Shown here: one piece after another, positions 22,568 through 22,625 of the stretch
Numbering within the stretch: the first letter of the stretch is position 1
Layout: each line of letters starts with the position of its first letter
From: Shigella phage sb2
Reading direction: 5' to 3' (one strand)
Sequence record: PQ666540
Length of the DNA: 64,000 bases
Notes under the pieces: generated by a model
The model's input: only the letters and a program-made list of their open reading frames with translations
Told to the model about the DNA's origin: nothing
The model's database searches: none
Program-made: the position numbers and the translations under genes

Positions 22568-22595
22568 TTTCTGTTCCTCCGTAGTTGATAGTTGT

Positions 22596-22625
22596 ATAGT
22601 ACCACAGAGGAACAGCCTTGTAAAC
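22596..22625 (-). promoter_or_regulatory. early promoter with SD-sequestering inverted repeat
   Basis: Minus strand GGTTTACA, spacer, TACTAT; spacer arm CTGTTCCTC is the reverse complement of GAGGAACAG in the RBS. Confidence 0.5.

Follow-up and report, generated by a model that had tools for sequence, protein, structure and literature searches.

The nrdC.8 locus and its early promoter

We analyzed a 64,000-nucleotide stretch of the genome of Shigella phage sb2 (record PQ666540; referred to below as the window), a Tequatrovirus sequence with ~98% identity to T4-like coliphages. Genes were named by alignment to T4 (NC_000866 / AF158101). The site of interest lies just upstream of nrdC.8 (22040..22567, minus strand; 175 aa), and is preceded by nrdC.9 (22628..22942), nrdC.10 (23032..24012) and nrdC.11 (24115..25128), all of which are on the minus strand, corresponding to the T4 early strand. 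The gene directly upstream, nrdC.9, would be the source of read-through RNA; its TAG stop codon occupies 22630..22628 (minus strand). The 2.7-kb stretch around the site is found at 98 to 99% identity in hundreds of Escherichia and Shigella T4-like phages.

A Pfam search assigned no family to the nrdC.8 protein. The nrdC.9 protein is a member of DUF7203, and the nrdC.10 protein yielded weak matches to AAA/STAND-like NTPases, every one of them under the Pfam cut-offs. A covariance-model search against Rfam gave no match at E <= 1 within 22400..22800, and the matches across the whole window were tRNAs only. The tRNA cluster (41545..42373, minus strand) comprises ten genes with a lowest score of 30.2 bits; T4 has eight tRNA genes, with segB interrupting them.

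Between nrdC.9 and nrdC.8, the minus strand matches the T4 early-promoter consensus in its GTTTAC, 17-bp spacer, TGn and TAnnAT elements. The GTTTAC of the -35 region (22625..22620) lies within GGTTTACA (22625..22618), and the -35 hexamer TTTACA (22619..22624) is kept in all lineages aligned. The spacer (22602..22618) supplies most of the 5′ arm of the hairpin described below and includes the extended -10 TGn (T at 22604, G at 22603), followed by the -10 hexamer TACTAT (22596..22601). By standard sigma-70 geometry we infer a transcription start at ~22589, the seventh base past the -10 (±2 nt); we found no literature on a mapped nrdC.8 start site. The -35 is 3 nt from the nrdC.9 stop codon, which the promoter abuts, and a terminator scan found no terminator-like site between nrdC.9 and the promoter. 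The 25 nt upstream of the -35 are the coding end of nrdC.9 (GAAAGAAGTTTCTTTTAGCG), which is A/T-rich and differs from the AAAATTTTTTCACAAAAC block found at 24063 and 39817.

An alignment of Tequatrovirus, Mosigvirus and Dhakavirus sequences shows no variation in GTTTACA at the -35, in the -10 or in the leader CTATCAACTAC, whereas the spacer differs between them, as would be expected if the promoter is functional. In SA20RB, a nearly identical phage, the annotation lists this site as a T4-type early promoter. An early promoter upstream of the ORF at 22040..22567 had been proposed in the initial annotation of this DNA, and the consensus match, the SA20RB annotation and the conservation of the elements all support it; the minus-strand layout given there agrees exactly with the letters and coordinates reported here. 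As judged from its sequence, the site matches the consensus of T4-type sigma-70 early promoters and is the putative promoter of nrdC.8.

Parts of this promoter recur in the window. Three minus-strand copies of the block TACTATACAACTAYCAACT are present, at 22583..22601, 24022..24040 and 39776..39794 (0.09 expected), in agreement with recurrences noted earlier at ~24035 and ~39789. The inverted repeats previously described around the -10 of other early promoters (~43386 and ~43715) are also present, as TGATGAGGTA/TACCTCATCA at the ~43744 promoter and ATAGGGT/ACCCTAT at the ~43414 promoter.

A hairpin spanning the promoter and the ribosome-binding site

The spacer contains CTGTTCCTC (22615..22607, minus strand), which is the exact reverse complement of GAGGAACAG. 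The Shine-Dalgarno (SD)-containing segment GGAGGAACAG occupies 22580..22571 on the same strand, and the exact complementarity of CTGTTCCTC and GAGGAACAG upholds the earlier description of a spacer arm complementary to the SD segment. RNA folding placed this 9-bp repeat at the core of a 15-bp stem formed by the 5′ arm CUGUUCCUCUGUGGU (22601..22615) and the 3′ arm ACUACGGAGGAACAG (22571..22585); two of the pairs are G·U, and the loop, ACUAUACAACUAUCA (22586..22600; all minus strand), is 15 nt long. The loop consists of ACTAT of the -10 and the initially transcribed region; T 22601 of the -10 forms the last stem pair, and the other five -10 bases are in the loop. The SD itself, GGAGG (22580..22576), is in the 3′ arm, and the nrdC.8 start codon ATG follows at 22565..22567. 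The 5′ arm would be present solely in RNA begun upstream of the nrdC.8 promoter.

The 66-nt segment folds at -26.3 kcal/mol (z = -6.85), a value equalled by 0 of 200 shuffles. When given 70 nt of upstream context, a 12-bp outer helix appears and the 90-nt fold reaches -32.9 kcal/mol. This helix pairs 22566..22555, which holds the U and G of the start codon and codons 2 to 4, with 22633..22626 and 22624..22621; its 5′ side is made of the last codons of nrdC.9, the stop codon of that gene and a portion of the -35. Equally stable folds were found in 0.1% of 21,312 minus-strand windows of 66 nt; the same scan identified 48 loci at -20 kcal/mol or lower, and the better-folding loci were mainly the tRNA/small-RNA cluster together with some terminator-like and intragenic hairpins. 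The spacer-SD duplex was more favorable in energy than those of all 2000 spacer shuffles (p = 0.0005). We rejected an intrinsic terminator as the identity of this element: the 3′ arm is followed by AAAAUGAACGC, with no U tract, and the element is absent from the terminator scan.

The coding sequences that form the outer helix are themselves conserved. The first 20 nt of nrdC.8 (ATGAACGCTAAAGATATTTT, 22548..22567) are invariant across genera whose nrdC.8 proteins are merely 68% identical, and the complementary end of nrdC.9 (AAGTTTCT.TTAG, 22626..22640) is near-invariant. This comparison hints at an RNA-level constraint on coding sequence.

Predicted SD exposure differed sharply between RNAs begun upstream and RNAs begun at the nrdC.8 promoter. 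In read-through RNA, folded at lengths of 90, 190 and 310 nt, the SD had an unpaired probability of 0.001, whereas promoter-proximal RNA (start 22587 to 22591) gave 0.58, with a weak alternative fold of -7 kcal/mol. The predicted start (~22589) is in the loop; the proximal RNA would therefore lack the 5′ arm and be nearly unstructured. These predictions carry out the comparison of long and short 5′ leaders that had been suggested for this site, and they favor both of the claims it was meant to check: that read-through RNA would fold the SD into a hairpin (0.001), and that transcripts from the promoter would start inside the repeat with a translatable leader (0.58). When 229 minus-strand T4 genes were folded from -70 to +20 and ranked by SD masking, nrdC.8 ranked 6, and gene 49, a known case of such masking, ranked 2.

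Conservation of the nrdC.8 hairpin

The gene nrdC.8 is confined to a few Tevenvirinae genera, of which we sampled Tequatrovirus, Mosigvirus, Dhakavirus and Gaprivervirus; IMG/VR and JGI metagenomes added merely 8 and 11 loci, mostly near-identical. Within Tequatrovirus, stem variants of 13, 14 or 15 bp occur, and T4 lacks the two outer pairs. The three differences between phage sb2 and T4 within the element each add base pairs in phage sb2. Thirteen of the 15 stem pairs are kept in all seven Tequatrovirus-type sequences, a set that includes the paralogous T4 ndd.4 cassette, and 4 of 4 substitutions in the inner 13 pairs are pair-preserving. A formal covariation count within Tequatrovirus and the ndd.4 paralogue found no double compensatory changes, and this comparison is weak when taken alone. 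The paralogous promoter/leader cassette precedes ndd.4 at T4 166747..166806; the annotated ndd.4 start (166764) is an ATG within the leader (caactATGgaggaacagaaaATG), and an SD-preceded ATG lies 15 nt downstream.

Other genera build a hairpin at the same promoter in different ways. In Dhakavirus an 11-bp pairing joins the spacer AUCUCCAGUAG to the SD region CUACUGGAGGU, in another sequence and another register, and gives an SD unpaired probability of 0.00 to 0.01 (p <= 0.001 versus spacer shuffles). The Mosigvirus spacer pairs instead with the -10 and the next bases (p = 0.007 to 0.015), and its SD is predicted to take part in a weak, G·U-rich pairing with the end of nrdC.9. In Gaprivervirus a 13-bp repeat surrounds the -10 and leaves the SD largely free. 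The nrdC.8 promoters of all four sampled genera thus have a predicted hairpin whose 5′ arm lies in the spacer, and direct SD masking is predicted in two of the genera, Tequatrovirus and Dhakavirus. Since the Mosigvirus and Gaprivervirus hairpins lack direct SD masking, masking is not the sole selected property.

The regB promoter as an independent case

The early promoter region of regB (32324..32266, minus strand) contains an 18-bp hairpin (32319..32273) whose arms are the spacer (5′) and a segment that includes the regB SD (3′); regB ranked 1 among the 229 T4 genes for SD masking. We compared regB promoters in nine genera, tabulating the pairs with GGAG as an anchor. A single spacer-SD stem of 14 to 18 bp was found in Tequatrovirus, Mosigvirus, Gelderlandvirus and Kanagawavirus, and in Karamvirus and Jiaodavirus the spacer and SD form an outer helix around an inner helix that flanks the -10. 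The structure was absent from Gaprivervirus, Biquartavirus and Krischvirus. Across the four single-stem genera, 6 positions of the stem show two-sided changes that keep the pair. RNAalifold on a MAFFT alignment of the same promoters found nothing because the arms were misaligned. The regB comparison thus provides real covariation for an SD-masking hairpin nested over an early promoter, which supports the same reading of nrdC.8. The dose of RegB is tightly limited, and the source on RegB makes no mention of a hairpin.

Hairpins at other early promoters

We measured spacer-to-downstream complementarity at 13 early promoters of the window, with 1000 spacer shuffles for each. Five of the 13 exceeded all of their shuffles and two more gave p ~ 0.01 to 0.02 (Fisher's combined p = 7e-10; 3e-8 without the nrdC.8 site). 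In the T4 genome, 11 of 33 candidate early promoters were at the shuffle floor and one more gave p = 0.006, compared with 2 of 197 control gene starts that had no early promoter and were examined in the same geometry (odds ratio ~49, Fisher p = 7e-9). Spacers fitted their cognate downstream sequences better than those of other promoters (permutation p = 2e-5, also when paralogues were removed), including when the fit was limited to the SD window (p = 5e-4).

Seven of the T4 promoters mask the SD (nrdC.8, regB, alc, motB.2, 30.8, alt.-3 and ndd.4), and five carry hairpins that flank the -10 alone and leave the SD free (ipI, ipII, motB, dmd and mobD.2). The latter are equally strong, and the selected property may therefore extend beyond SD masking. 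Of the 181 pairs in these stems, 24 are G·U. Folded as sense RNA, the stems gain a mean of 5.4 kcal/mol in stability over their antisense counterparts (composition baseline, -0.7; Wilcoxon p = 0.0009). These G·U pairs and the stability of the sense strand speak for selection on early-strand RNA and against DNA-templated repeat correction, a cruciform or a palindromic site for a protein, and the pattern points to an RNA-level role for the promoter hairpins.

Related arrangements occur elsewhere in the window. The minus-strand promoters at 43744, 43414, 39480, 27140 and 35427 have a 5′ arm in the spacer, a 3′ arm just past the -10 and a free SD; they are the early promoters of ipI, trna.4, e.7 and mobD.2, together with the one at 35427. 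A perfect 14-nt palindrome, CATAAAGCTTTATG, lies in the spacer of the nrdC.10 early promoter (24055..24042, minus strand), and the palindrome-bearing spacer is also found at the T4 promoters 55383 and 146874. Two MotA-type middle promoters, Pm1 upstream of gene 1 (45226..45161) and P45.2 (3991..3926; both minus strand), are likewise nested in hairpins, and the 3′ arm of the Pm1 hairpin covers the gene 1 AUG. These two cases suggest that the hairpin-nested design is used with middle promoters too.

Comparison with known regulatory elements

Structures that mask ribosome-binding sites have been reviewed for e, soc, 49, I-TevI/II/III, segB, 25, 26 and Aeh1 mobE (PMC3014915; PMC2988022), and for e, soc, 49 and I-TevI it is established that the masking hairpin contains an internal promoter. 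Edgell et al. (2010) stated that such genes "are all late genes" (PMC2988022). The predicted nrdC.8 hairpin resembles those of e, soc, 49, I-TevI/II/III, segB and Aeh1 mobE in that a stem would bury the SD and/or AUG in RNA initiated upstream, and it resembles the e-type arrangement in that a promoter between the arms is predicted to yield a shorter, translatable RNA. The e-type genes are late genes with a gp55 late promoter (TATAAATA), whereas the internal promoter of nrdC.8 is a sigma-70 early promoter and no TATAAATA late promoter lies between its arms. Furthermore, at nrdC.8 the spacer between the -35 and the -10 serves as the 5′ arm, and the gate would be open early only, not late only. 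The gene e hairpin in the window (start codon 35927) folds at -17.2 kcal/mol, compared with -32.9 kcal/mol for nrdC.8 over 90 nt. The analogy to T4 gene e drawn in the initial annotation was therefore apt as to the logic, which is the same, and needs amending as to the promoter, since the known T4 cases all use late promoters. Because its promoter is early and no late promoter lies between the arms, the nrdC.8 hairpin is a variant outside the late-gene set. By this analogy, an early-promoter version of the known late-gene masking logic would be new.

The consensus of T4 early promoters (Pe) is reportedly due to Liebig & Rüger, Wilkens & Rüger and Miller 2003. The nrdC.8 promoter resembles Pe in its GTTTAC, 17-bp spacer, TGn and TAnnAT elements and in the conserved ACAACTATCAACT start region that follows, and it differs in that it appears to lack both a distinct A/T-rich UP region ahead of it and a terminator. 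The reviews of Pe consulted describe extra consensus positions and mention no complementarity between spacer and leader. We found no prior description of spacer-SD pairing at T4 early promoters in the papers searched, and an earlier mention is possible; the one other paper found to mention nrdC.8 was unrelated to hairpin structure.

Promoter-early stem-loops (PeSL) are terminator-plus-promoter cassettes (Arbiol et al. 2010; Comeau et al. 2014). The nrdC.8 promoter shares with them the repetition of early-promoter cassettes in hyperplastic regions, as seen in the block shared by 22583, 24022 and 39776. In PeSL, unlike at nrdC.8, the stem-loop is a G/C-rich terminator (often GGGG...CCCC) located upstream of the UP element and promoter. 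We rejected PeSL as the identity of the nrdC.8 hairpin, which has no upstream terminator and spans the -10 and SD. A PeSL-type unit is present upstream of nrdC.10 (24113..24035, minus strand), where a UUCG-loop terminator (AGGGAGCCTTCGGGCTCCCT), a T run, an A/T-rich block and an early promoter (24063) follow one another.

The nrdC.8 SD is also a target of the phage RNase RegB. Durand et al. (2006) found the nrdC.8 GGAG to be "moderately cleaved" by this enzyme during T4 infection; they also described a requirement for single-stranded RNA and the consensus GGAGRAYARAA (PMC1702504). The nrdC.8 SD contains GGAG, and the 3′ part of the site (GGAGGAACAGA / GAACAGA) departs from that consensus. The GGAG is predicted to be single-stranded in the short RNA only. 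Moderate cleavage fits a mixture of open short and closed long RNA; it also fits the poor 3′ consensus.

Proposed mechanism and alternative explanations

We propose that the promoter in use would determine whether nrdC.8 is translated. RNA begun upstream would hold both arms. The closest early promoter from which such RNA could come is the nrdC.10 promoter at ~24063, and middle promoters located upstream may be a further source of long RNA. In such RNA the 15-bp stem would bury the SD and the 12-bp outer helix would cover the AUG, so that 30S subunits would be excluded. RNA begun at the nrdC.8 promoter would start in the loop without the 5′ arm, leaving the ribosome-binding site open. The nrdC.8 protein would then be made solely from its own promoter, and hence only during early-promoter firing. 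RegB may cut the exposed GGAG of the short RNA and help end nrdC.8 synthesis, and the closed long RNA would probably be RegB-resistant. We judge it fairly probable that an RNA hairpin masking the translation start encloses the nrdC.8 sigma-70 early promoter and gates translation according to the promoter of origin. The proximal promoter is early, as is the nearest one upstream, and the temporal benefit of this gating would therefore depend on putative read-through from more distant middle promoters. Of the mapped T4 middle promoters, the closest are PnrdC.7, downstream at 53325, and PmobD, upstream at 57389; read-through from PmobD would have to cross two terminator-like sites.

The hairpin could instead be a general promoter-embedded structure whose main role is non-translational, such as a barrier to RNase E scanning or exonucleases, a processing site, or a pause for read-through RNA polymerase, with coverage of the nrdC.8 SD an incidental matter of register. 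The SD is free in 5 of the 12 strongest T4 promoter hairpins, the SD-free paralogues at 57989 and 20611 carry a compensatory U-A to C-G change, the nrdC.8 promoters of Mosigvirus and Gaprivervirus carry the SD-free class, and what all lineages have in common is the 5′ arm in the spacer. Against this, complementarity in the SD window alone is cognate-specific (p = 5e-4), Tequatrovirus and Dhakavirus attain SD pairing via different registers, and the regB stems of six genera always include the SD; no specific alternative function is supported by the data obtained. We consider a non-translational main role unlikely. Far less probable still is a by-product of DNA-level or mutational processes (a cruciform, a protein-binding palindrome, quasi-palindrome templating or cassette recombination) or of chance. 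It is true that T4 early promoters are shuffled as cassettes, as in PeSL, that members of the spacer family "agactgttcttcc" at T4 27079 and 70695 have no SD complementary to them, and that about nine 9-bp inverted repeats within 40 nt would be expected by chance in 64 kb (an estimate). However, the actual stem has 15 bp and ranks among the top 0.1% of windows, and DNA templating or a palindromic site would not produce the 24 G·U pairs and the sense-favoring asymmetry (p = 0.0009). The enrichment is specific to early promoters (odds ratio ~49), and since the arm sequences differ among promoters they offer no common binding site.

Two further explanations accept that the SD is paired and assign the pairing another purpose. 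The hairpin might shield the intergenic GGAG of polycistronic RNA from RegB and so keep nrdC.7 onward expressed. RegB cuts GGAG only when it is single-stranded, and structure inhibits the enzyme; in vivo the nrdC.8 GGAG is cleaved only "moderately" (PMC1702504). In addition, GGAG is present in almost all SDs downstream of these promoters. The poor match to the 3′ A-rich consensus could by itself account for moderate cleavage, though, and nrdC.7 has its own middle promoter. We find shielding as the main role quite improbable; it is compatible with promoter-dependent gating and does not compete with it exclusively. Alternatively, ribosomes finishing nrdC.9 might open the structure, such that translation of nrdC.8 from long RNA would need translation of nrdC.9. 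The outer helix does use the last codons and stop codon of nrdC.9, and in Mosigvirus the SD itself is predicted to pair with the nrdC.9 end. Yet the 15-bp stem begins 15 nt past the first base of the nrdC.9 stop codon, a distance that, judging from ribosome footprints, is at or just beyond ribosome reach; the SD stem should therefore survive termination while the outer helix melts. We give such coupling very little credence.

A broader possibility, which we put forward tentatively and regard as open to real doubt, is that T-even phages have a genome-wide promoter-of-origin code, in which roughly one in three early promoters, along with certain middle promoters (Pm1, P45.2), would be nested in sense-strand hairpins that have the promoter spacer as their 5′ arm. 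The fate of a transcript would then differ according to whether it was begun at such a promoter or had read through it. Hairpins of one class would mask the ribosome-binding site (regB, alc, motB.2, nrdC.8), and those of the other would leave the SD free.

Implications for T4-like phages

T4 is a textbook case of temporal gene control, and hairpins that mask the ribosome-binding site and contain an internal promoter are taught as a means of delaying late genes such as that for lysozyme. If promoter-dependent gating is correct, the same device placed around early promoters would act in the opposite direction, giving early-only translation. The wider early-promoter pattern, together with the covarying regB hairpin, might be unexpected to a T4 specialist; the single nrdC.8 site is a tidy example. 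Promoter spacers, which are usually seen as information-poor, would carry information at the RNA level, and the compact design could be of use in synthetic biology wherever translation is to depend on the promoter of origin. A practical warning also follows: the expression of early genes in T4-like phages could not be inferred from RNA-seq coverage alone.

According to reviews, the mechanism of early shut-off is still incompletely understood. Gating of the kind proposed here would, if true, add a cis-acting post-transcriptional layer to that shut-off, and the translation of certain early proteins, including the RNase RegB and the host-transcription inhibitor Alc, would be limited to RNA from their own promoters and thereby to the first minutes of infection.
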